64,000 nt of DNA, taken from the UHGV virus genome UHGV-0141541; one strand, given 5' to 3'. The translations under genes were made by a program, and so were the position numbers. The stretch is from a virus. Below the pieces are notes generated by a model, which saw only the letters and a list, made by a program, of their open reading frames with translations, did no database searches and was not told the origin of the DNA. Within the stretch, counting starts at the first letter, position 1, and every line of letters starts with the position of its first letter. This document shows positions 4,523 to 41,168 of this stretch, one piece after another.

Positions 4523-6097
4523 TCACTCGTTCTCTTGAGTAGATGAGTCCCCATTCCCTCGGGGTTGATCTTGCCCGCTTTCTTGGGCTGCACCACGATC
4601 ATAAGTAAGTACTGACTTATTTTCAAGGGTGTTTAGATCATTTTTTGGAGGAAAATTCAAGAGATCTTTATCAAATTCCTTTTTCATCGCCTCAGTAATG
4701 TTCGGGAAAATCTTCTCAATAAGCATTTCCATCTGGTGACGACGTACAGAGTCCGGTGCCTGAAGTAATGACAGTTTCTCGGCAACAGAAAATTCATCAG
4801 TAAGGCCACGAATATCGAAACTTTCTGGATACGCAATTAAAGAGTGGTCTTCGTCCAGATCTACCCCCATCCATTTCGCAACCAGTAGCATGATTTGGCG
4901 TTCAGCCCTTTCCAGACGCTCTGCTTTTGTGACAAGCAAGCTATTTACACGCTGGAAGTCATACATTTTTGCGGCACCAGATGAATTATCGATTCCCTGT
5001 GCGTTGTCCTGCTTCGTTCGCTCACCAGCTACACCAACTGAATGGTAGATTTCGTTAATCACCGTCTTAATCGTAGTGATGATCATCTGAGCTTGTTTCG
5101 GGTCTGGTGACAGATAAAACGGCTGGTTTCCACCTTCAGAATCGTAGGTGAAGACTCGCTTTGTGCCCATTTCAAGCACTTTAGTGTGGTTTTCATCACC
5201 AGGTAAAAGCGACTGTACCGGTATAGCCAACTGGCTAAATGTCTGATCCTGAATAATGGCATCAAGGTTTGACAGATAGTTTGCAACCGCACGATCAAGA
5301 TAAGCGATATCATCGATTAACGATGGGCTGAAATACGGTGATTCACTTTCTCCAATACAATCAACAGGAAACACAGGAACTACGCCGAGATTATGCTCAC
5401 CGCTATCCTCTAAAATAACTTTTGCCTGACGGCGACCTGCTCCACCAGCGCCCTTCTTCACTTCCTCACGGAACAGATACCACTCGTTTTGTGTCCACAG
5501 ACGATAACGTTGGTATTCCTGACCTGTAGAAGTAAAAGGATCTGCGTCATCACGAGCGACTTCCACAATTAACGCCCATAACATATTCCCGTCGTCGTCC
5601 CATGCCACATCCAGCATTTGCTGAGGTGAAATCCAGTAGGCGTAGGCACGAGCATCTTTCTTTTTCTCGTCAGCTACTGACTCAACATCACCACTCATTG
5701 TGCTATCAACAACAACCCAGATACGGCCGTAGATTGACGATTGCAAATCAATGGCGGCCATAAATGAGTCAATAGAGGCATTCTGGCGAGTCGCACGTTT
5801 CCAGAAATTGCGGATCTGCTCTGGTGCCTCTTCGATATTTCTATGAATGTCTTCTTTAAAGAGATATTTGTTGATGAGGTTTACCACCTCACGAGTGTGG
5901 TTGAAGCGATAAGCACGCTCAACTCGCTCCTTAAACTCCTGATCTCCCTCTTTAAAGTAACGAAAGATATTGTCTGTAAACCAACCACGCCCGCCAGCGT
6001 AAGTGCTGGCGAGGAAGTCCCAATGTTCTTTTTTCTTTTCGTATTCCGGGTGGCGTCGCGCCACCAGATCCTTAATTTGTTTGTCGTTCAATTCCAT
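4523..6097 (-). CDS. portal protein (putative)
   Basis: 524 aa ORF immediately downstream of terminase large subunit; size and position typical of portal; no motif verified. Confidence 0.55.
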   Translation of the reverse strand: MELNDKQIKDLVARRHPEYEKKKEHWDFLASTYAGGRGWFTDNIFRYFKEGDQEFKERVERAYRFNHTREVVNLINKYLFKEDIHRNIEEAPEQIRNFWKRATRQNASIDSFMAAIDLQSSIYGRIWVVVDSTMSGDVESVADEKKKDARAYAYWISPQQMLDVAWDDDGNMLWALIVEVARDDADPFTSTGQEYQRYRLWTQNEWYLFREEVKKGAGGAGRRQAKVILEDSGEHNLGVVPVFPVDCIGESESPYFSPSLIDDIAYLDRAVANYLSNLDAIIQDQTFSQLAIPVQSLLPGDENHTKVLEMGTKRVFTYDSEGGNQPFYLSPDPKQAQMIITTIKTVINEIYHSVGVAGERTKQDNAQGIDNSSGAAKMYDFQRVNSLLVTKAERLERAERQIMLLVAKWMGVDLDEDHSLIAYPESFDIRGLTDEFSVAEKLSLLQAPDSVRRHQMEMLIEKIFPNITEAMKKEFDKDLLNFPPKNDLNTLENKSVLTYDRGAAQESGQDQPRGNGDSSTQENE

Positions 6098-22260: not shown

Positions 22261-24294
22261 TTACTTAACCTGGTGGCCAGGTTTAGCACCAGCATCCGGG
22301 CTTAACAGGAAGATATCTTTCCCGCCGGGGCCAGCAGCCATCACCATGCCTTCAGAGATACCGAAGCGCATTTTACGCGGAGCCAGGTTAGCCACCATAA
22401 TGGTGTGACGACCAATCAGTGCCTGTGGATCTGGATAAGCGGAACGGATGCCTGAGAAGACATTACGCTTTTCACCACCGAGATCCAGCGTCAGGCGAAG
22501 CAGTTTGTCAGAACCTTCGACAAACTCCGCGTTTTCAATCAGCGCCACACGCAGGTCAACTTTGGCGAAGTCGTCAAAGGTGATGGTTTCCTGAATCGGG
22601 TCGTCAGCCAGTGGGCCAGTTACCGGTGCAGCTGTGGCTTTCACTTCTTCTTTGGATGCTTCCACCAGTGCTTCCACCTGTTTCATATCGATACGGTTAT
22701 ACAGTGCCTTGAACGGATTCACTTTATGGCCCAGCAGCGGTTGCTGGATACCATCCCAAGTCAGTTCTGTATTCAGGAATGCTTCTGCACGTTCAGTCAG
22801 TTTCGGCAGTACCGGTTTCAGGTACGTCATCAGCACGCGGAACAGGTTAATGCCCATAGAGCAAATCGCCTGCAGATCGGCATCGCGTCCTTCCTGCTTC
22901 GCCACCACCCACGGAGCCTGTTCATCGACATAGCGGTTAGCCAGATCAGCCAGCGCCATGATTTCACGAATCGCTTTACCAAATTCGCGGCTTTCCCATG
23001 CTTCACCAATCACTTCAGCGGCATCAGTAAAGGTTTTGTACAGTTGCGGGTCAGCCAGTTCGCCTGCCAGCACACCGTCAAAACGCTTATTGATAAAGCC
23101 CGCGTTACGGGACGCCAGATTCACCACTTTGTTCACGATATCGGCATTCACGCGCTGAACGAAATCCTCCAGGTTGAGATCGATATCATCAATGCGCGAA
23201 GAGAGTTTCGCAGTGTAGTAGTAACGCAGGCTGTCAGCGTCAAAATGATTCAGCCAGGTGCTGGCTTTAATAAAGGTGCCGCGAGACTTGGACATCTTCG
23301 CACCGTTCACCGTCACATAGCCATGAACAAACAGGTTGGTCGGCTTGCGGAAGTTGCTGCCTTCCAGCATGGCAGGCCAGAACAGGCTGTGGAAGTAAAC
23401 GATATCTTTACCGATGAAGTGGTACAGCTCGGCGGTGGAGTCTTTCTTCCAGTATTCGTCGAAGCTGGTAGTGTCGCCGCGTTTGTCGCACAGATTCTTG
23501 AAGGAACCCATGTAGCCAATCGGTGCGTCCAGCCAGACGTAGAAGTATTTGCCCGGTGCGTTCGGAATTTCAAAACCGAAGTAAGGTGCGTCACGGGAGA
23601 TATCCCACTGTTGCAGGCCAGATTCAAACCACTCCTGCATTTTGTTTGCCACCTGCTCCTGCAACGCACCGCTGCGGGTCCATGCCTGCAACATTTCGCT
23701 GAAAGAAGGCAGATCAAAGAAGAAGTGTTCGGAATCACGCATTACCGGTGTAGCGCCAGAAACCACTGATTTCGGCTCGATCAGTTCCGTCGGGCTGTAG
23801 GTCGCGCCGCAGACTTCACAGTTATCGCCGTATTGATCCGGCGCTTTACATTTCGGGCATGTGCCTTTTACAAAACGGTCCGGCAGGAACATGCCTTTTT
23901 CCGGGTCGTACAGCTGAGAGATGGTGCGGTTTTTAATAAAACCGTTCTCTTTCAGGCGAGTATAGATAAGCTCGGACAACTGACGGTTCTCTTCGCTGTG
24001 CGTCGAGTGATAGTTGTCATAGCTGATGTTAAAGCCTGCGAAATCAGTCTGATGTTCCTGACTCATTTCGCCAATCATCTGTTCCGGTGTGATACCAAGC
24101 TGCTGTGCTTTCAGCATGATTGGCGTACCGTGGGCATCGTCGGCACAGATGAAATTAACCTCGTGGCCGCGCATTCGCTGGTAACGAACCCAGACATCAG
24201 CCTGGATGTGCTCCAGCATATGGCCGAGGTGGATTGAGCCGTTAGCGTACGGCAGCGCGCACGTCACCAGAATTTTCTTCGCGACTTGGGTCAT
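22261..24294 (-). CDS. metG: methionine--tRNA ligase, host-type
   Basis: 677 aa starting [26 protein letters not shown] (HIGH motif), KMSKS present, C-terminal tRNA-binding domain; the 720-aa ORF-track start is an upstream extension. Confidence 0.95.
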
Positions 24295-24451
24295 AGTAGG
24301 CATTACTTCTTTGTAGTGAAAAGGGGCTTGATAGTAACAAAATGGCCTTATGTCTGCCATGTGATAACAGCATTTCTCATAAATGATTAAATGTCGTAGC
24401 TGGAGTACACTACAAGGCGACAATTGCGCAAATTAAAATAAAGGAGACGGG

Positions 24452-25552
24452 ATGAGCGAGTCCAAATCGCCGGATGCCCTGAGAGCAATGGTAGCCGGTA
24501 CGCTGGCTAATTTTCAGCACCCAACCCTGAAACACAACCTGACTACGCTTAAAGCGTTACACCATGTTGCGTTGATGGATGACACACTGCATGTCGAACT
24601 AATCATGCCTTTCGTGTGGAATAAGCCTTTTGAAGACCTGAAAGAGCAATGTAGTGGTGATCTGCTCCGTATCACTGGCGCAAAGGCTATTGACTGGAAG
24701 CTGTCGTACAACATTGCCACGCTTAAGCGCGTCAAAAACCAACCAGGCATTAATGGCGTTAAGAACATTATCGCCGTCAGCTCAGGCAAGGGCGGCGTGG
24801 GTAAATCCTCCACGGCGGTAAACCTGGCACTGGCGTTGGCTGCTGAAGGTGCGAAAGTTGGTATTTTGGATGCCGATATCTATGGTCCATCAATTCCAAC
24901 CATGCTGGGCGCGGAAAACCAACGTCCAACCTCACCTGACGGTACTCACATGGCACCTATCATGTCTCATGGCCTGGCAACCAACTCTATTGGTTATCTG
25001 GTCACCGACGACAATGCAATGGTGTGGCGTGGACCGATGGCCAGCAAGGCGCTGATGCAGATGTTGCAGGAAACTCTATGGCCTGATCTGGACTATCTCG
25101 TTCTCGATATGCCGCCGGGCACTGGTGATATTCAGTTGACGCTGGCGCAGAACATTCCTGTAACTGGTGCGGTTGTGGTAACTACGCCGCAAGACATCGC
25201 GCTGATCGATGCGAAGAAAGGCATTGTGATGTTCGAAAAAGTCGAAGTGCCGGTACTGGGTATCGTTGAAAACATGAGTGTGCATATTTGCAGTAACTGC
25301 GGTCATCACGAGCCAATTTTTGGCACCGGTGGCGCACAGAAACTGGCCGAGAAATACAACACGCAGTTGTTAGGCCAAATGCCACTTCATATCTCTCTTC
25401 GTGAAGATCTGGATAACGGAACACCAACCGTTATTAGTCGTCCAGATAGCGAATTTACAGCTATTTATCGTGACCTCGCAGATCGCGTTGCTGCCCAAAT
25501 GTATTGGCAAGGTGAAGTAATACCTGGCGAAATCGCATTCCGCGCAGTGTGA
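24452..25552 (+). CDS. apbC: iron-sulfur cluster carrier protein ApbC/Mrp, host-type
   Basis: 366 aa; deviant Walker A SSGKGGVGKSS, CxxC motif (CSNCGH); divergent from metG with 157-bp intergenic region, the arrangement I recall for E. coli. Confidence 0.93.
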   Translation: MSESKSPDALRAMVAGTLANFQHPTLKHNLTTLKALHHVALMDDTLHVELIMPFVWNKPFEDLKEQCSGDLLRITGAKAIDWKLSYNIATLKRVKNQPGINGVKNIIAVSSGKGGVGKSSTAVNLALALAAEGAKVGILDADIYGPSIPTMLGAENQRPTSPDGTHMAPIMSHGLATNSIGYLVTDDNAMVWRGPMASKALMQMLQETLWPDLDYLVLDMPPGTGDIQLTLAQNIPVTGAVVVTTPQDIALIDAKKGIVMFEKVEVPVLGIVENMSVHICSNCGHHEPIFGTGGAQKLAEKYNTQLLGQMPLHISLREDLDNGTPTVISRPDSEFTAIYRDLADRVAAQMYWQGEVIPGEIAFRAV

Positions 25553-27728: not shown

Positions 27729-28222
27729 AGTAGTGATCCTGTCTTAACAATGCTGGACTTTAAAAGTAGTGGTAAGTGTTTAAGTCACTACGCTTGCCAG
27801 CATGGTTAATAAAGATCAACTGTCATTGGCAGGTAGTTCGACTTGCTGTCTTTTAGGTCACTTACAGCCTTGGCAATCAGCTCCGATACCTAAGATACCA
27901 GAATGGCCGATTTTAGCAAGACGAATAAATGATGCTTTCAGCTAGCCATGTCCTAGCATGGCCAGATTTTGGGTGTTCGTATTTATTTCATTGACCAGCA
28001 TTATAATCGTTAATCTGGTTACTCGGAGACGGGCTGCAACATCGAGCGCAGCGCGTGAAGGTGGAAGGATAAAAGTTGGCAGTTATCTCAGCTACCCGGT
28101 CACTCTCCCATGAAGTAGTTCTGAACCGGATTAGAGAAATGCAAAACGATAACAGAGGCTAAATCGAGGTAGAAAACACATTATTTAAGGCCACTAATTG
28201 TGGCCTTAAAGGGGAGAGATGC

Positions 28223-28747
28223 TTATTGGCTATGGCTAAAAATCAAATGAGACACTTCATGTGGTTGTAGCTCGTCAAGATCCGGTGCCACAAAACCTTT
28301 TCCGAAAGACTTCACAAGTGATTCACCAGCCGCATCCTTGTCACCTATTACACGAAAGTCATACGGCAGCATTGCAAGTTGACGACGTAATCCAGCTGAG
28401 AAAGTCGAACCTAACAGCGCCCATGAATTTCCGCCCGCGTTGTGCACTGCTGCACTTTTAAAAATCGACTCAGTTATCCATATTGGGCCATCTTTTAAAG
28501 GAAGATAGGTTCCCCAAAGTAACTGTCTGCCGTGTGATCGCGTGAAATACCGGGCCATCTTCGGATTGCTATGCTGCTTAGGAGCGCCTGGTCTGTATGT
28601 CTGATACCCAGCCAACATCCCATCAAACCTGTATAGAGGGAATGTAACAACTCCTTCGCTTTCATCGATCCACTGTCTATATGGGTGTATATCATGGCGG
28701 TAGTTACGAGTCAGCAAATGAGCTTCCAGCTTTCCAAATTTGGTCAT
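28223..28747 (-). CDS. putative Toprim-domain protein (primase-like catalytic core?)
   Basis: ORF track 28223-28786; start moved to MTKFGK (RBS GAGGGA); conserved Glu in ITES plus DxD-type VIGDKDAAGE resembles a Toprim signature; weak. Confidence 0.35.
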   Translation of the reverse strand: MTKFGKLEAHLLTRNYRHDIHPYRQWIDESEGVVTFPLYRFDGMLAGYQTYRPGAPKQHSNPKMARYFTRSHGRQLLWGTYLPLKDGPIWITESIFKSAAVHNAGGNSWALLGSTFSAGLRRQLAMLPYDFRVIGDKDAAGESLVKSFGKGFVAPDLDELQPHEVSHLIFSHSQ

Positions 28748-28760
28748 AACTTCGCATCCC

Positions 28761-29615
28761 TCATAACACTTCCCATTTATCACCATATTTCTCCATAGCT
28801 CTTAGCCAGTAAACATGGCCACTAGGCATAGTGATGTGAGGCTCACCAAACTCTTCTCCATGTACATCAAAGATGTCCCCAACAGAAAATTGGGGGATTT
28901 CTGTTCCGTTTTCACCTATATGTGTAATTCGTATACGTTTCGGTTGGGATTGTCCACCTTTGAGCGAGTTGTTCACTGCTCTGGCAATTTTCTCCCGCAA
29001 TTGCTGCGTTCCGTGATACGTAACCGCAATATCCCTCAACTCGTTCACCAGTTCTCGAATCTGGTGATCTTTAAGCTCATTATTTGGGTGATTGGTAACA
29101 ACTCTGGTTAATTCACCCTTGTCTTTTGCTCTTACGTATGCAGCTCTTGTGCATTCGACCCATGTATTACCGCCTACATTAACTTCGTAGATTAGGCTGG
29201 ACTTATCTGTCAATTCGGAACAAATACGGGCCGTGGTCTGGCAACTAGAGCATTCGCAGTTATCGCGGAAACCGTGGTCTACTGGCTTCGGTTTCACATC
29301 ATCAACTTTTTCTACCCTATCGGAATTTAAATACTTCGAAGCCTTGCTATGCCAATCGCTGGTTTTAGGATCTTGTCCATCCATCAAACGCCAGGCTTCA
29401 GCGATTAACTCATAACTAGTGACTGTAGCTTCCTGCGCATCACCAATAAGTCGTGTAATCTCTCTTTCAAGCCGACCGCCTAGCTCTGTTTTAGTGCAAT
29501 GTTCTGACCAATCGCCAGCCTCAAGCAGCGCGAGAATGCTTAAAATATCGTCCAATAGATCAGTGGTATTATCGACTTCCTTCTGAAACTCACCGGCTAC
29601 TGATTTATGCATCAT
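28761..29615 (-). CDS. hypothetical protein with Cys-rich segment
   Basis: 284 aa; CECSSCQ...C cluster; overlaps the downstream Toprim-like ORF by 26 nt in another frame. Confidence 0.5.
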   Translation of the reverse strand: MMHKSVAGEFQKEVDNTTDLLDDILSILALLEAGDWSEHCTKTELGGRLEREITRLIGDAQEATVTSYELIAEAWRLMDGQDPKTSDWHSKASKYLNSDRVEKVDDVKPKPVDHGFRDNCECSSCQTTARICSELTDKSSLIYEVNVGGNTWVECTRAAYVRAKDKGELTRVVTNHPNNELKDHQIRELVNELRDIAVTYHGTQQLREKIARAVNNSLKGGQSQPKRIRITHIGENGTEIPQFSVGDIFDVHGEEFGEPHITMPSGHVYWLRAMEKYGDKWEVL

Positions 29616-30330: not shown

Positions 30331-30468
30331 GTGTTTTTCTCTTCTTTGCTGTTACATAAGCACTACCAAGTGCTGGTTTATTTTCACAAATAAGAAAAGG
30401 TAGAAAACAATTTATTTAAGGCCACAACTTATGGCCTTTATTTATTCATGCCGAAGGATTTGTAGCGT

Positions 30469-37173: not shown

Positions 37174-37233
37174 CAGCCTGCTTCCGTATATTAATAATTA
37201 ATATGTAGTTATTTATATATACAGAAGCAGGCT
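37174..37233. promoter_or_regulatory. IR-flanked AT-rich element (copy B)
   Basis: AGCCTGCTTC ... GAAGCAGGCT arms around a ~40-bp AT-rich core; near-identical copy at 8125-8185. Confidence 0.5.
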
Positions 37234-37254
37234 AATTACAGACGCCAGAACAAA

Positions 37255-37848
37255 CTAAGCAGCCTTCTTTGATGGTCTTTTTTTCCTGATCACATTCGCA
37301 GGATCATACCCTCCCAGACTTTTCATGACGTCCAAAGGGATCTTGCTTATAGAGTGCCCAGCGTCCTGACAGAATCCTCGAAAAACAACGAGCATACTGC
37401 CACCTGGGTTGATGTTTACTTCTACCTGACCCAGATTGACGTCAGGCTCGACAAACGCTACGCGGCCACCAGACAGAATAATCGTCTCATTCGCACACTC
37501 TGTTGCACGCTCATACCACTTTGTATCTAGGGATTGAGGAATTAGCATCACTGTTGTAACTCCGCGAGCCTGCTCACGTATAGCCGCATCAATCCAGGGG
37601 GAGATTTTGGAGTAGGGTGGATTGAGGAAGGCAATTGTACCTGGCTGTCCCCATTCAGATTTCAAAGCATCACGCTCAACGCCTATGAAATTAGGCAGCT
37701 TTGCATTGTCCTTGTTGCAGGCAACGTCAACATCAAATGTCACTCCAAGATAACGTTGAATGGCAGAAAACAGCCAGTCAGGTGTTCTCCAGAGGTCACG
37801 AAGAGAGTTGTCGCGCTTTCGCTGTTTGATTTTTTCGGCTGCAATCAT
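37255..37848 (-). CDS. dam: DNA N6-adenine methyltransferase (phage Dam-type)
   Basis: 197 aa; WRTPDWLF, FDVDVA, FLNPPY motifs typical of small phage Dam methylases. Confidence 0.75.
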   Translation of the reverse strand: MIAAEKIKQRKRDNSLRDLWRTPDWLFSAIQRYLGVTFDVDVACNKDNAKLPNFIGVERDALKSEWGQPGTIAFLNPPYSKISPWIDAAIREQARGVTTVMLIPQSLDTKWYERATECANETIILSGGRVAFVEPDVNLGQVEVNINPGGSMLVVFRGFCQDAGHSISKIPLDVMKSLGGYDPANVIRKKRPSKKAA

Positions 37849-40047: not shown

Positions 40048-40692
40048 CTAATGAACGGTCACTCGGCCACAGAACCGGTTTTCTATCTTTTCTACAGCGT
40101 TATCTAGCATTCTCATCACTGATCTGGCTCTTGCTTCAACCGTGCGATACCGGTTGGAAACGACGAAGGTTTGCAGATCTCCCCTTTGCGGATGCAGGTG
40201 AATTTTTGTCAGTTCCCCGCACATCAACGCATCAATACGAGCGACATACAGACGGTCTAATGATGCTCGTTGTGATCGCAAGTAATCTCGCTCTGAGAGA
40301 GCGACTCCCGGGCGTAAGCCAGCAATGGCGTTAAAGTTTGAAATAGCAGTTTTGTGGCAAAACTTTTCGATATCGAGGGCTAACTCAATACACCGATCTT
40401 CATTTGTATGGCCGACCAAATCCAACGTGTAGGCCATAACATCAGCAGGTGTGCGATCGATAACAAAGCCTTCAACACCACGCGTAAGTAGCTCTATATG
40501 CTTTGCTATTTCCATTTGAATCTGAAGCCGCTCATATAGAGGCATAGAATCACCTACTCGAACACCGAGGCGGCTCATCAAACTTCCGACACCAGCATCC
40601 ACGTAAGGGATTCCGTAATGTTTGTCGATATATTTAGCCAGGGTTGTTTTCCCACTGCCCTGAGCACCAGTGATCCCAATCCGGTAATCCAT
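40048..40692 (-). CDS. P-loop kinase, possible dNMP kinase
   Basis: 214 aa; Walker A GITGAQGSGKTT at N-terminus; in nucleotide-metabolism block next to DHFR/ThyA; substrate unverified. Confidence 0.55.
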   Translation of the reverse strand: MDYRIGITGAQGSGKTTLAKYIDKHYGIPYVDAGVGSLMSRLGVRVGDSMPLYERLQIQMEIAKHIELLTRGVEGFVIDRTPADVMAYTLDLVGHTNEDRCIELALDIEKFCHKTAISNFNAIAGLRPGVALSERDYLRSQRASLDRLYVARIDALMCGELTKIHLHPQRGDLQTFVVSNRYRTVEARARSVMRMLDNAVEKIENRFCGRVTVH

Positions 40693-41168
40693 TACGACCT
40701 TCTGTATACGATCTGCGAAAAGCCAGGCTCTTCCTCGCTGGCTCGTTGGGTATAAGCTGTTTCAACAGGCACAAAGCCTAAGTTACGCATCATGCTTGCC
40801 GGGAAGAATGCATCGGCGTTTGGTACATCAACGCCGATGTGGGAGAGCCAAATCTCTTCAACATGCGGCATGAATAGCGAGTAAATTTGTTCCCCGCCAA
40901 TCACCCACACAGGCTCTGGTAATCGCAACACATCATCCATACCAGCAGGGTAGAATCCATTTGGTACAAAGCCATGAGAGCGCGTCAAAACGAGGTTATG
41001 ACGCTCTGGAAGAGGGCGTTTGAGACTTTCCATCGTTTTACGCCCCATAACGACAGTGGCGTTTTTGGTGAGTCTCTTAAATAGCTTCAGATCGGTAGAA
41101 CAACGCCAGGGGAGTTCATTCGCTATGCCGATCTCATAGTTACGGCCAACAGCAGCGATCATCTTCAT
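40692..41168 (-). CDS. folA: dihydrofolate reductase
   Basis: 158 aa; N-terminal IAAVGRNYEIG..LPW, VVMGRKT, VIGG matches DHFR family pattern. Confidence 0.8.
   Translation of the reverse strand: MKMIAAVGRNYEIGIANELPWRCSTDLKLFKRLTKNATVVMGRKTMESLKRPLPERHNLVLTRSHGFVPNGFYPAGMDDVLRLPEPVWVIGGEQIYSLFMPHVEEIWLSHIGVDVPNADAFFPASMMRNLGFVPVETAYTQRASEEEPGFSQIVYRRS

Follow-up and report, generated by a model that had tools for sequence, protein, structure and literature searches.

Two open reading frames (ORFs) adjoin on the minus strand of a 64,000-nt stretch of viral DNA (the window), and they raise the question of whether a single primase has been divided between them. The upstream ORF encodes 284 amino acids with a cluster of cysteines, the downstream ORF up to 187 amino acids with residues arranged like those of a Toprim domain, and an earlier note on this sequence had proposed a two-subunit primase, a programmed frameshift or a sequencing frameshift. 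We find an ordinary pair of genes in which nothing is split or frameshifted. For this window the answer is of little consequence, since the pair is already annotated, correctly, and nothing is broken. As an overall explanation, the locus probably comprises two genes, independent of each other, that close a leftward operon of accessory genes.

The window is 100% identical to plasmid pS2-S1K81-2, and we classify the host element as an SSU5-like phage-plasmid of E. coli. Both genes are present in RefSeq, one as a 'hypothetical protein' and the other as a 'toprim domain-containing protein'. The 174-aa Toprim protein is identical to the RefSeq entry so named, WP_047659493.1. The features of the locus are as follows.

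28761–29615, minus strand: gene for the 284-aa protein, by PHROG segment matches and alignment a mosaic Ea22/EaA-like accessory protein (WP_047659447.1, phrog_20174)
28223–28747, minus strand: gene for the 174-aa protein, very probably a stand-alone DnaG/T7-type primase core (Toprim), from PHROG 849, hhalign, Foldseek and RefSeq
28223–28786, minus strand: maximal 187-aa ORF, in a different frame from the 284-aa ORF and overlapping it by 26 nt
28748–28786, minus strand: 13-codon in-frame extension MVINGKCYEGCEV, outside the Toprim gene; it lies within the upstream coding sequence and is absent where the upstream gene differs
28757–28762, minus strand: Shine-Dalgarno-like GAGGGA, 9 nt 5' of the ATG at 28747, read from the sequence
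28184–28210, minus strand: terminator-like hairpin with an 11-bp stem and a T-rich tail, from a consensus scan only

Gene layout and the start codon

The two maximal ORFs have the coordinates listed above, which confirm the earlier note: they lie in different frames and overlap, by 26 nt. The overlap is a property of the maximal ORFs, however, and is an artefact of taking the longest ORF with the first ATG. The true start of the Toprim gene is the ATG at 28747, which gives a protein of 174 aa and turns the overlap into a gap of 13 nt between the stop codon of the 284-aa ORF and this ATG. The same start is used in both the RefSeq and the PhiR41_1 annotations, and divergent Toprim homologues begin at a methionine equivalent to M14 of the 187-aa ORF. 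The GAGGGA motif overlaps the TGA stop codon of the 284-aa ORF (28761–28763). Just 5' of ATG 28747, 14 of 20 near-identical loci have a wholly different sequence, and where near-identical copies of the Toprim gene follow another upstream gene the similarity begins exactly at this ATG. At the other end of the gene the terminator-like hairpin begins 13 nt past the stop codon, so the Toprim gene is probably the final gene of a leftward transcription unit. A consensus scan found no promoter-like site between the two genes.

These observations bear on the proposal that one primase gene has been broken by a programmed or accidental frameshift between 28761 and 28786. Such a break would fit two ORFs that lie in different frames and overlap by 26 nt if the first ATG is used, but we regard it as hardly credible. 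The shift needed would be +1, and a search of the junction finds neither a slippery heptamer of the form X XXY YYZ nor a homopolymer of at least five nucleotides; the alternative arrangements become alike only from ATG 28747 on. Two independently assembled plasmids carry a 100% identical sequence, and other contigs show this two-gene arrangement too, with the 284-aa ORF 95–98% identical; a sequencing frameshift is therefore excluded. No fused homologue is present among the 1030 relatives of the 284-aa protein or the 493 representatives of the Toprim family, and the relatives show unfused, unrelated ORFs, which is the second of the outcomes that the earlier note had named as refuting its proposal.

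A Toprim protein and its mosaic neighbour

The suggestion that the downstream ORF encodes a Toprim domain of primase type, which had been offered as a weak one, is borne out by PHROG 849, by hhalign to DnaG and by Foldseek, all of which agree; the first refuting outcome named in the note, a lack of primase or Toprim matches, thus does not apply. The profile search gives a match to PHROG 849 ('DNA primase') with an E-value of 1.9e-52 and 179.7 bits, which covers residues 14–179 of the 187-aa ORF and positions 142–333 of the 435 in the profile. hhalign aligns the protein with residues 202–318 of E. coli DnaG (probability 95.8, E 7.5e-9), pairing E93 with E265, D136 and D138 with D309 and D311, and K57 with K229. 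In Foldseek searches of the PDB the best matches are the RNA-polymerase domain of DnaG and T7 gp4, over about 165 columns with a probability of 1.0; in BFVD the matches are 'DNA primase' proteins of 165–173 aa from Providencia and Proteus phages, with E-values down to 1.4e-12. Three acidic motifs can be placed on the DNA.

28469–28471, minus strand: codon for E93, the Toprim catalytic glutamate (TESIFKS), equivalent to DnaG E265 by hhalign and from 31 family members
28334–28342, minus strand: codons for D136-K-D138, the Toprim DxD in GDxDxAG, equivalent to DnaG D309/D311 by hhalign and conservation
28274–28282, minus strand: codons for D156-L-D158 (DLDE), a third acidic motif resembling DnaG motif VI, at least 90% conserved

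The glutamate and DxD elements, the basis of the original suggestion, are invariant or nearly so in the 31 family members: E93 and D138 never vary, and D136 is conserved to at least 90% (174-aa numbering). D156 and D158 may be equivalent to D345 and D347 of DnaG, a pairing taken from their pattern, as they lie outside the block aligned by hhalign. The protein also has a reduced N-terminal subdomain, in which residues 32–80 align to DnaG 202–250 by hhalign. This subdomain carries motif II, FPL..F.G.L.GYQ, and motif III, PK...RYFT...WG; FPL..F.G.L.GYQ pairs with FPIRD..GRVIGF, PK with PK(Y) and WG with YG.

In identity and architecture, the 174-aa protein is very probably a minimal catalytic core of a DnaG/T7-type primase. 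It contains no cysteine, and a Pfam scan gives no match to the zinc-binding domains zf-CHC2 and Prim_Zn_Ribbon. The same scan finds no helicase-binding domain or fused DnaB-type helicase (DnaG_C, DnaB_C), and the protein terminates 36 residues beyond the DxD. Against this reading, hhalign places K97 at the equivalent of DnaG D269, the Foldseek E-values for the PDB are modest at about 1e-3, and the structure model is moderately confident, with a pLDDT of 74 and a disordered loop at 56–67. In the Pfam scan the 174-aa protein has no match at E up to 1 and is below all Toprim gathering thresholds. An NCBIfam scan of the Toprim ORF gives nothing significant, and the family profile has no match among PDB sequences at E up to 10. 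Membership of the Toprim superfamily is therefore by homology and not by a direct score, because it is the T5 homologue that passes Pfam Toprim_2 (score 24.5, cut-off 22.1), and the link to DnaG is shown only by fold comparison and hhalign. When the family is compared by hhalign with the plasmid's own 371-aa primase, using a shallower alignment than in the DnaG run, only motif II is aligned (E 0.022).

The 284-aa protein is of a different kind. To judge from its sequence, it is a recombination-shuffled mosaic protein of the Ea22/EaA type that is unrelated to the Toprim gene. Its PHROG matches are segment-wise, with residues 1–63, 99–219 and 175–222 assigned to different families. The N-terminal module is common to DUF551 and 3'-5' exoribonuclease fusions, and alignment shows the middle and C-terminal modules to be swappable. 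The ORF is labelled 'EaA protein' in PhiR41_1 and its relatives are annotated as EaA or Ea22; the AlphaFold model of the protein is unusable, with a pLDDT of 39.6. Its cysteines include the cluster below.

29220–29258, minus strand: cysteine cluster C120-x-C122-x2-C125-x6-C132, within the swappable middle module of the 284-aa protein

The cluster is real, as had been observed, and contains four cysteines, but it is modest, has no zinc-finger profile match and is not a CxxC...CxxC zinc ribbon; the whole protein has six cysteines. Its presence is one reason to consider a two-subunit primase, in which the 284-aa protein would provide zinc and DNA recognition in trans to the Toprim protein. The two genes are also adjacent on the same strand with no promoter-like site between them. 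The zinc domain of T7 is able to act in trans. Primases split into ZnR and Toprim proteins have been described (PMC7824862). We nevertheless consider a two-subunit primase very improbable here. Searches of Pfam, NCBIfam and PHROGs find no zinc-ribbon, zinc-finger or primase signal in the 284-aa protein, and the C-x-C-x2-C-x6-C spacing differs from that of the CHC2/C4 ribbon of primases. Most homologues lack the cysteine module, which only the close relatives P0017 and P0026 possess; P0027, P0045 and others are without it. The 284-aa ORF precedes only 6 of the 20 near-identical Toprim genes and no divergent homologue in other lineages. More generally, no protein neighbour of the Toprim gene is kept across lineages, about 100 loci having been compared for a conserved partner. 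No further C-x2-[CH]...C-x2-[CH] motif occurs in any frame in the 20–40 kb part of the window.

A different candidate partner is phrog_3797, a 101-aa protein with a C-x2-H-x18-C-x2-C motif that precedes the Toprim gene in 12 of the 20 near-identical loci. We rejected it as a ZnR partner because it has no zf-CHC2 match, is absent from this plasmid and from the divergent lineages, and occurs in P22-like and other phages outside the Toprim matches listed.

The mini-primase family and its possible roles

The Toprim protein belongs to a widespread phage family, represented by T5 ORF071 and PHROG 849, whose members are natively stand-alone. A profile search of 1.84 billion representatives yields 493 matches (clusters at 50% identity). 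The proteins are overwhelmingly stand-alone and of about 150–200 aa (128 of 160 retrieved fall between 150 and 200 aa), and they occur in T5-like, Jersey-like and jumbo phages as well as in phage-plasmids. Every close homologue that reaches 150 aa is 164–185 aa long, and at least 80% of the Toprim protein is covered in 456 of 490 phage records. In Jersey-like, P59 and Atu_ph04 phages the gene lies within replication or nucleotide-metabolism modules. Searches of the literature turned up no experiments on this mini-family.

A +1 frame break, conserved at a G(A/G)AAATT(A/G) site, is present in the gene at 25 jumbo-phage loci. This frame break strengthens the case for unusual selection on the mini-DnaG family.

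The name 'DNA primase' given to these proteins of 150–200 aa rests on homology to half a primase. It may mislead as to function, because a complete primase is also present in the three lineages checked and the T5 copy is deletable. The plasmid encodes a canonical primase of 371 aa (phrog_47, E 5.7e-63; DNAG_N and Toprim_2), the gene for which adjoins a DnaB-like helicase gene; its Cys-rich N-terminal motif CPVC...C....H is, in our reading, a putative zinc ribbon. T5 has a canonical primase (AAX12049) besides ORF071, and Proteus phage P59 additionally has a 570-aa protein with Toprim_2 and DnaB_C. The T5 homologue falls within the T5st0 deletion.

The Toprim protein would then be an auxiliary, dispensable gene product and not the replicative primase. 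Dispensability is also in keeping with the presence of the gene in some Jersey-like phages only and with its decayed remnant in P1. We suggest that it is a Mg2+/Mn2+-dependent nucleotidyl-transfer enzyme of the primase lineage, which would make or act on short RNA. Primer synthesis on DNA is a tentative choice for its activity, somewhat more doubtful than not. With no zinc finger, the protein alone would presumably be unable to recognise template sites, and T7-type primase cores that lack the zinc domain are not known to make template-directed primers, which counts against primer synthesis. Placement of the gene in tRNA arrays and its fusion or adjacency to CCA-adding enzymes also point to RNA and not to DNA replication.

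An alternative is that the mini-DnaG protein acts on RNA and specifically on tRNA, in the processing or repair of phage tRNA transcripts or in the cleavage of host tRNAs, for which the phage would then supply replacements. Several Toprim proteins act on RNA, including RNase M5, the DnaG of the archaeal exosome, and the tRNA-cleaving AriB and P2 Old. Action on RNA would explain the placement in tRNA arrays, the adjacency or fusion to tRNA nucleotidyltransferase and the co-existence with a canonical primase, which the plasmid, T5 and P59 genomes already own. In T5-like phages the homologue lies in the tRNA array, on the same strand, with tRNA-Ser just downstream; in Arash-like phages of 180 kb it lies between tRNA-Ser and tRNA-Tyr, again on the same strand; and in jumbo phages of 300 kb it is 2–3.5 kb from the tRNA array. 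The homologue of Vibrio phage F89 abuts a tRNA nucleotidyltransferase gene, and P0205 is a fusion of Toprim with a PolyA_pol head. Other fusions in the family involve HAD phosphatase-like, Arr/ADP-ribosyltransferase-like or cytidylyltransferase-like domains. Within the window, metG is about 4 kb from the Toprim gene, and the Toprim domains of RNase M5 are among the Foldseek fold matches. Toprim nucleases that target tRNA have been documented (PMC12409363, PMC12445682).

Even so, we consider action on tRNA to be unlikely. Both the N-terminal subdomain and motifs II and III are specific to primases, and it is primase cores that match the structure best, in alignments that span the full length. 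Scans of the window for tRNA and Rfam families found nothing, and the gene has no tRNA in its vicinity in the window, in Erwinia jumbo phages or in Jersey-like, P59 and Atu_ph04 phages. Phages in general collect accessory and homing-endonuclease genes in their tRNA regions. Gene and tRNA arrays could have travelled jointly as one block, and fusions in metagenomic gene calls may be artefacts. That the zinc-less mini-DnaG family (T5 ORF071, PHROG 849) as a whole consists of phage tRNA/RNA-metabolism enzymes and not of DNA primases is likewise unlikely in our view. If it did, the enzymes may process tRNA transcripts, act in repair beside CCA-adding enzymes, or destroy host tRNA in a manner coupled to the phage tRNA supply. 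The recurring link to tRNA arrays is the only intriguing lead on the mini-primase family; were it functional, this abundant family, with 490 phage records and 493 clusters, would represent a new class of primase-derived phage enzymes of RNA metabolism.

The distribution of the gene is patchy among close relatives. In Jersey-like phages it is found in some members only (PMC10783031), and P1 retains merely a decayed 3' remnant. Together with the fragments and remnants P0006, P0008, P0010, P0011, phrog_17952 and phrog_14043, and the location of the gene in tRNA regions rich in homing endonucleases and beside an intein-bearing helicase, this pattern could suggest a selfish freestanding homing nuclease, or an inactive primase remnant nearing loss. 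We find either quite improbable. Across many lineages the protein keeps its full length and its catalytic residues, down to about 31% identity, which speaks for an active enzyme under purifying selection and not for decay. The copy in the window is intact, and it has no recognisable DNA-targeting domain for homing.

A defence nuclease of Toprim type (OLD, GajA, AriB or retron Toprim) was also considered and rejected. A PADLOC scan of both ORFs gave nothing significant, and the Toprim protein has no match at E up to 1; its neighbours have no Pfam-recognisable ATPase domain, and its N-terminal subdomain is of primase type.

Comparison with known systems

The reading that we prefer, a minimal primase core beside an unrelated mosaic gene, can be set against several known systems. 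The RNA-polymerase domains of DnaG and T7 gp4 (PDB 1EQN, 1DDE, 4E2K, 6N9W) share their fold with the entire 174-aa protein; motifs II–V align, and the catalytic glutamate, the DxD and the motif III lysine are in place. Unlike these proteins, the Toprim protein lacks the zinc-binding domain, the C-terminal helical subdomain and the helicase-binding or helicase domain. Its size is roughly half that of the DnaG RNA-polymerase domain, and only profiles detect the similarity in sequence.

Some jumbo phages encode a stand-alone primase-type zinc ribbon and a DnaG-Toprim protein (Iyer et al. 2021, PMC7824862). These split primases resemble the present gene in having a Toprim core without a fused zinc ribbon; they differ in that no primase-type zinc-ribbon gene adjoins the Toprim gene here or is conserved across the family.

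RNase M5, OLD and AriB share the Glu/DxD metal centre of Toprim, and RNase M5 is a lower-ranked fold match. The matches to these nucleases, which lack the DnaG-type N-terminal subdomain, span only the Toprim half of about 100 residues. The Toprim protein of the window has neither a PADLOC match nor an ATPase partner.

The 284-aa ORF has the modular, shuffled architecture of the 'ea' proteins of the Lambda Ea22/EaA type (phrog_20174, phrog_21749, phrog_19524). Its combination of modules, including the cysteine cluster, is restricted to a few E. coli phage-plasmids, unlike the general Ea22/EaA set.

The T5 ORF071/PHROG 849 family gives the best structural match to the Toprim protein, with a TM of 0.76. 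Members of PHROG 849 include the 165–173-aa 'DNA primase' proteins of Providencia phage PSTCR5 and Proteus phage Privateer and the 'TOPRIM primase' of Jersey-like phages. T5 ORF071 itself (AAX12008.1, 172 aa, 'DNA primase') is 42% identical to the Toprim protein over residues 6–169. The T5 protein passes Toprim_2, whereas that of the window is below all Pfam Toprim thresholds. The present gene differs in that it resides in a temperate phage-plasmid, within an Ea22-like mosaic region and not in a tRNA array or replication module. The two proteins are alike in being stand-alone, of similar length and with the same invariant motifs, and in both T5 and the host element the mini-gene is extra to a canonical primase.

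The Toprim gene and its product

The 284-aa and 187-aa ORFs were said in the earlier note to lie in different frames and to overlap, and ORF reading finds them so, with an overlap of 26 nt. The second methionine of the 187-aa ORF is codon 14, an ATG at 28747.

Features around the Toprim gene (positions in the window)
28761..29615, minus strand: 284-aa ORF
28223..28786, minus strand: maximal 187-aa ORF, in the other frame
28223..28747, minus strand: Toprim gene, 174 aa, with 13 nt between the upstream stop and its start
9-nt spacer before the ATG at 28747, minus strand: Shine-Dalgarno-like GAGGGA, overlapping the upstream TGA stop (28761-28763)
28184-28210, minus strand: GC-rich terminator-like hairpin after the Toprim gene, AAGGCCAC....GTGGCCTT
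27958-28113, plus strand: 51-aa ORF in the gap of 495 nt that follows the Toprim gene
30418-30438, plus strand: similar GC-rich terminator-like hairpin, between 166-aa and 126-aa ORFs

Twenty IMG/VR loci, each with a Toprim copy of at least 97% identity, were compared. The 284-aa ORF lies upstream in six of them. In the other 14 the DNA directly 5' of the codon-14 ATG is wholly different, so the two arrangements diverge exactly at this ATG. Divergent homologues (48-77% identity) start at the equivalent methionine. RefSeq has a separate 284-aa hypothetical protein and a 174-aa 'toprim domain-containing protein' starting from the codon-14 methionine, and the annotation of both ORFs in phage PhiR41_1 agrees. 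We therefore place the gene at 28223..28747. The 26-nt overlap is an artefact of ORF extension, and the gene pair is an ordinary one that had been annotated before.

The Toprim gene is probably the last of a leftward operon and is followed by the first of the two hairpins. No Rfam match was found in the window. The product of the 51-aa ORF would begin with a strongly hydrophobic stretch and continue with an Arg-rich one (MARFWVFVFISLTSIIIVNLVTRRRA...); the ORF is conserved in one comparison locus (L019), and the product could be a small membrane peptide of toxin type.

Searches of the Toprim protein against Pfam, NCBIfam, PADLOC and PDB sequence profiles gave no matches. In PHROGs it matches phrog_849 'DNA primase' (E 1.9e-52, profile positions 142-333 of 435). 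AlphaFold modelling from an alignment of seven sequences gave a pLDDT of 74 and a pTM of 0.71. The top 15 Foldseek matches in the PDB are the RNA-polymerase domains of E. coli, S. aureus and P. aeruginosa DnaG and of T7 gp4 (~160-177 columns, probability 0.97-1.0, query TM 0.48-0.56); RNase M5 Toprim domains rank lower and match over only ~100 residues. Among viral models, Foldseek ranks highest the proteins labelled 'DNA primase' (165-173 aa) from Providencia phage PSTCR5 and Proteus phage Privateer, with E 1.4e-12 and TM 0.76 for the top one. A profile of 31 family members aligns with residues 202-318 of E. coli DnaG (probability 95.8, E 7.5e-9). The weak Toprim assignment of the first reading was right, and it can be sharpened by PHROG 849, Foldseek and the DnaG profile alignment: the 174-aa protein is a minimal DnaG/T7-type primase catalytic core. 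It lacks a zinc domain, because it has zero cysteines, and a helicase-binding module, because it ends 36 residues past the DxD motif.

Candidate partners of the Toprim protein

The 284-aa protein contains six cysteines, four of them clustered as C120-x-C122-x2-C125-x6-C132. This cluster had been taken as a possible zinc-binding half of a primase; the four cysteines are there, but a zinc-finger and primase domain search of the protein gave no signal. The whole length of the protein matches phrog_20174, and segments of it match other PHROGs, none of assigned function; its structure model is unusable. It has 1030 relatives, and the annotations found among relatives are EaA or Ea22. Alignment shows a widely shared N-terminal module that in other proteins is fused with DUF551 or with a 3'-5' exoribonuclease domain. 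The cysteine cluster sits in a middle module seen only in a few close relatives and deleted in P0027, and the C-terminal module is likewise variable. Compared in both directions with the retrieved Toprim-family proteins, including their N-terminal extensions, the 284-aa protein showed no similarity, and none of these proteins joins the two families.

Joining the two ORFs would need a +1 frame change. The junction holds neither an X XXY YYZ heptamer nor a homopolymer of at least five, and the suggested slippery sequence is absent. Independent assemblies are identical here, and other contigs show the same arrangement with a 284-aa ORF of 95-98% identity, which rules out a sequencing error.

A partner gene was sought more widely. 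No neighbour family is common to the major lineages (ORFs <=2.5 kb clustered, ~100 loci, 13 lineage groups), and three divergent metagenomic contexts share only the Toprim gene itself with the window. In the majority E. coli arrangement a 101-aa phrog_3797 protein ending in C-x2-H-x18-C-x2-C lies upstream. In this arrangement, seen in twelve near-identical loci (L021 4334-5004 and 11 others), tandem paralogues of 121 and 101 aa precede the Toprim gene, with a coiled-coil N-terminus and the same C-terminal motif, and the stop codon of the 101-aa paralogue runs into the Toprim start codon (ATGA). The Cys/His spacing resembles a CHC2 zinc ribbon, with no Pfam zf-CHC2 match. phrog_3797 also occurs in P22-like, LASTA, D6 and RCS47 phages, of which the P22-like phages and others are not among the Toprim matches listed. 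We rejected it as a primase zinc-ribbon partner, since it has no primase zinc-ribbon match and is absent from the window's plasmid.

In Jersey-like phages (Jerseyvirus, L008 1515-3980) a SNF2-type helicase gene lies directly upstream of the Toprim homologue and is split by an intein carrying a LAGLIDADG homing endonuclease (Hint + LAGLIDADG_3).

Split zinc-ribbon and Toprim primases exist in some jumbo phages (PMC7824862). The locus studied here does not fit that definition, and no zinc-ribbon-like motif was found in any frame between 20 and 40 kb of the window. The earlier note is partly confirmed: it was right that the protein is Toprim and primase-like, and wrong about a split or frameshifted primase, given a stand-alone family, no slippery site and an upstream ORF without primase signal.

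A stand-alone family and its host element

Searched with a profile, 1.84 billion cluster representatives gave 493 matches; the best 150 listed of these, with close homologues, make up 160 retrieved proteins. No close homologue of 150 aa or more falls outside 164-185 aa, and 128 of the 160 are 150-200 aa. The 16 longer members have heterogeneous added domains. Only one of ten scanned has an N-terminal zinc finger (P0171, DUF3268); others carry a PolyA_pol head (P0205), Arr-like, HAD-like or cytidylyltransferase-like domains. With tblastn the protein was found in 490 phage records, at coverage of at least 80% in 456, including T5-like phages (T5 AAX12008.1, 'DNA primase'), Jersey-like siphoviruses, Erwinia, Dickeya, Serratia and Klebsiella jumbo phages, and Vibrio, Proteus and Agrobacterium phages. 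The native architecture of the family is stand-alone.

In 25 jumbo-phage loci (IMG/VR, L065-L093) the coding sequence of the homologue is spread over two frames; the loci come from Erwinia/Dickeya phages (~260 kb), Serratia/Klebsiella phages (~300 kb) and a single contig of 287 kb. The break is at ~5200-5230 in each locus (for example L071 5190-5240), just past a conserved (W/F)G-x-E, at G(A/G)AAATT(A/G). Measured against the N-terminal part, whose frame stops 10-20 codons after the break, the Toprim (C-terminal) part is always in the +1 frame. Because the break is conserved across diverged lineages, it points to programmed +1 frameshifting or to a gene split on purpose. In one Arash-like locus (L039) a break falls at another place, probably through an error.

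Across 24 kb the window and E. coli plasmid pS2-S1K81-2 (NZ_CP107145.1, 111,932 bp) are 100% identical, as are the window and the counterpart plasmid of E. coli strain R7. The host element is a phage-plasmid with siphovirus-type structural genes, RepB and ParB, and genes for Pol III alpha, a DnaB-like helicase, ligase, RecA, RNase HI, NrdAB, ThyA and DHFR. Its gene content suggests that it is SSU5-like. Related phage records are PhiR41_1, CMS-2020a and Cyrano. Cellular-type genes lie nearby (window 22261-25552 and 40692-41168; RefSeq, identical plasmid): metG (methionine-tRNA ligase), apbC and DfrA51, a trimethoprim-resistant DHFR beside thymidylate synthase.

The canonical primase of the plasmid has 371 aa and adjoins the DnaB-like helicase gene (NZ_CP107145.1, L010 29400-32003, outside the window). 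It matches phrog_47 (E 5.7e-63) and contains DNAG_N and Toprim_2 domains; its N-terminal CPVC...C....H is read as a zinc ribbon, and its annotation is 'hypothetical protein' only. Besides the mini-gene, T5 carries a primase of 296 aa next to its polymerase, and Proteus phage P59 a gp4-like 570-aa Toprim_2 + DnaB_C protein. The T5 mini-gene (37201-37719) is inside an 8.5-kb segment absent from T5st0, a viable laboratory strain. The mini-gene is present in only some of the near-identical Jersey-like phages (PMC10783031). In P1 all that is left of the gene is a degraded 3' third, which shows that the locus next to humD is a hot spot of recombination and decay. This remnant (L002 3544-3741, minus strand; MH422554, between Upf93.6 and the next CDS) corresponds to residues 109-174 at 85% identity, with invariant or near-invariant glycines changed (G113D, G141S), and is an unannotated pseudogene. 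The Toprim gene is an extra copy beside the canonical primase and probably dispensable.

Function and relation to DnaG

The Toprim protein has a conserved primase-type fold and metal-binding residues and is translated independently. We infer a divalent-metal-dependent nucleotidyl-transfer enzyme of the primase lineage that would serve an auxiliary function. Sequence-specific template recognition should be missing, because there is no zinc domain. That the protein really primes DNA synthesis is a tentative reading.

An RNA- or tRNA-directed role has also been considered, and its case comes from context. In T5-like and Arash-like phages the mini-gene is embedded in tRNA arrays and shares their strand; in 300-kb jumbo phages it lies 2-3.5 kb away from such arrays (L036-L064, L067, L065 and L077, around 5000-5700 in each; T5, L007 3989-4768). 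In Vibrio phage F89 (L014 1631-3465) it abuts a tRNA nucleotidyltransferase gene, and P0205 fuses it to the PolyA_pol head. This placement may hint at such a role. However, no tRNAs lie near the gene in the window or in Erwinia jumbo phages, Jersey-like phages, P59 or Atu_ph04, and phage tRNA regions are known to collect accessory genes. We consider the RNA-directed role unlikely, and priming the better-placed candidate.

The residual value of the locus lies in the mini-DnaG family, with its predicted activity, its association with tRNA arrays and the +1 frame break in jumbo phages. In the profile alignment with E. coli DnaG, the family has equivalents of motif II, the motif III lysine (K57=K229), the WG/YG motif, E93=E265 and D136/D138=D309/D311, whereas D269 of DnaG is replaced by lysine in the mini-Toprim protein.
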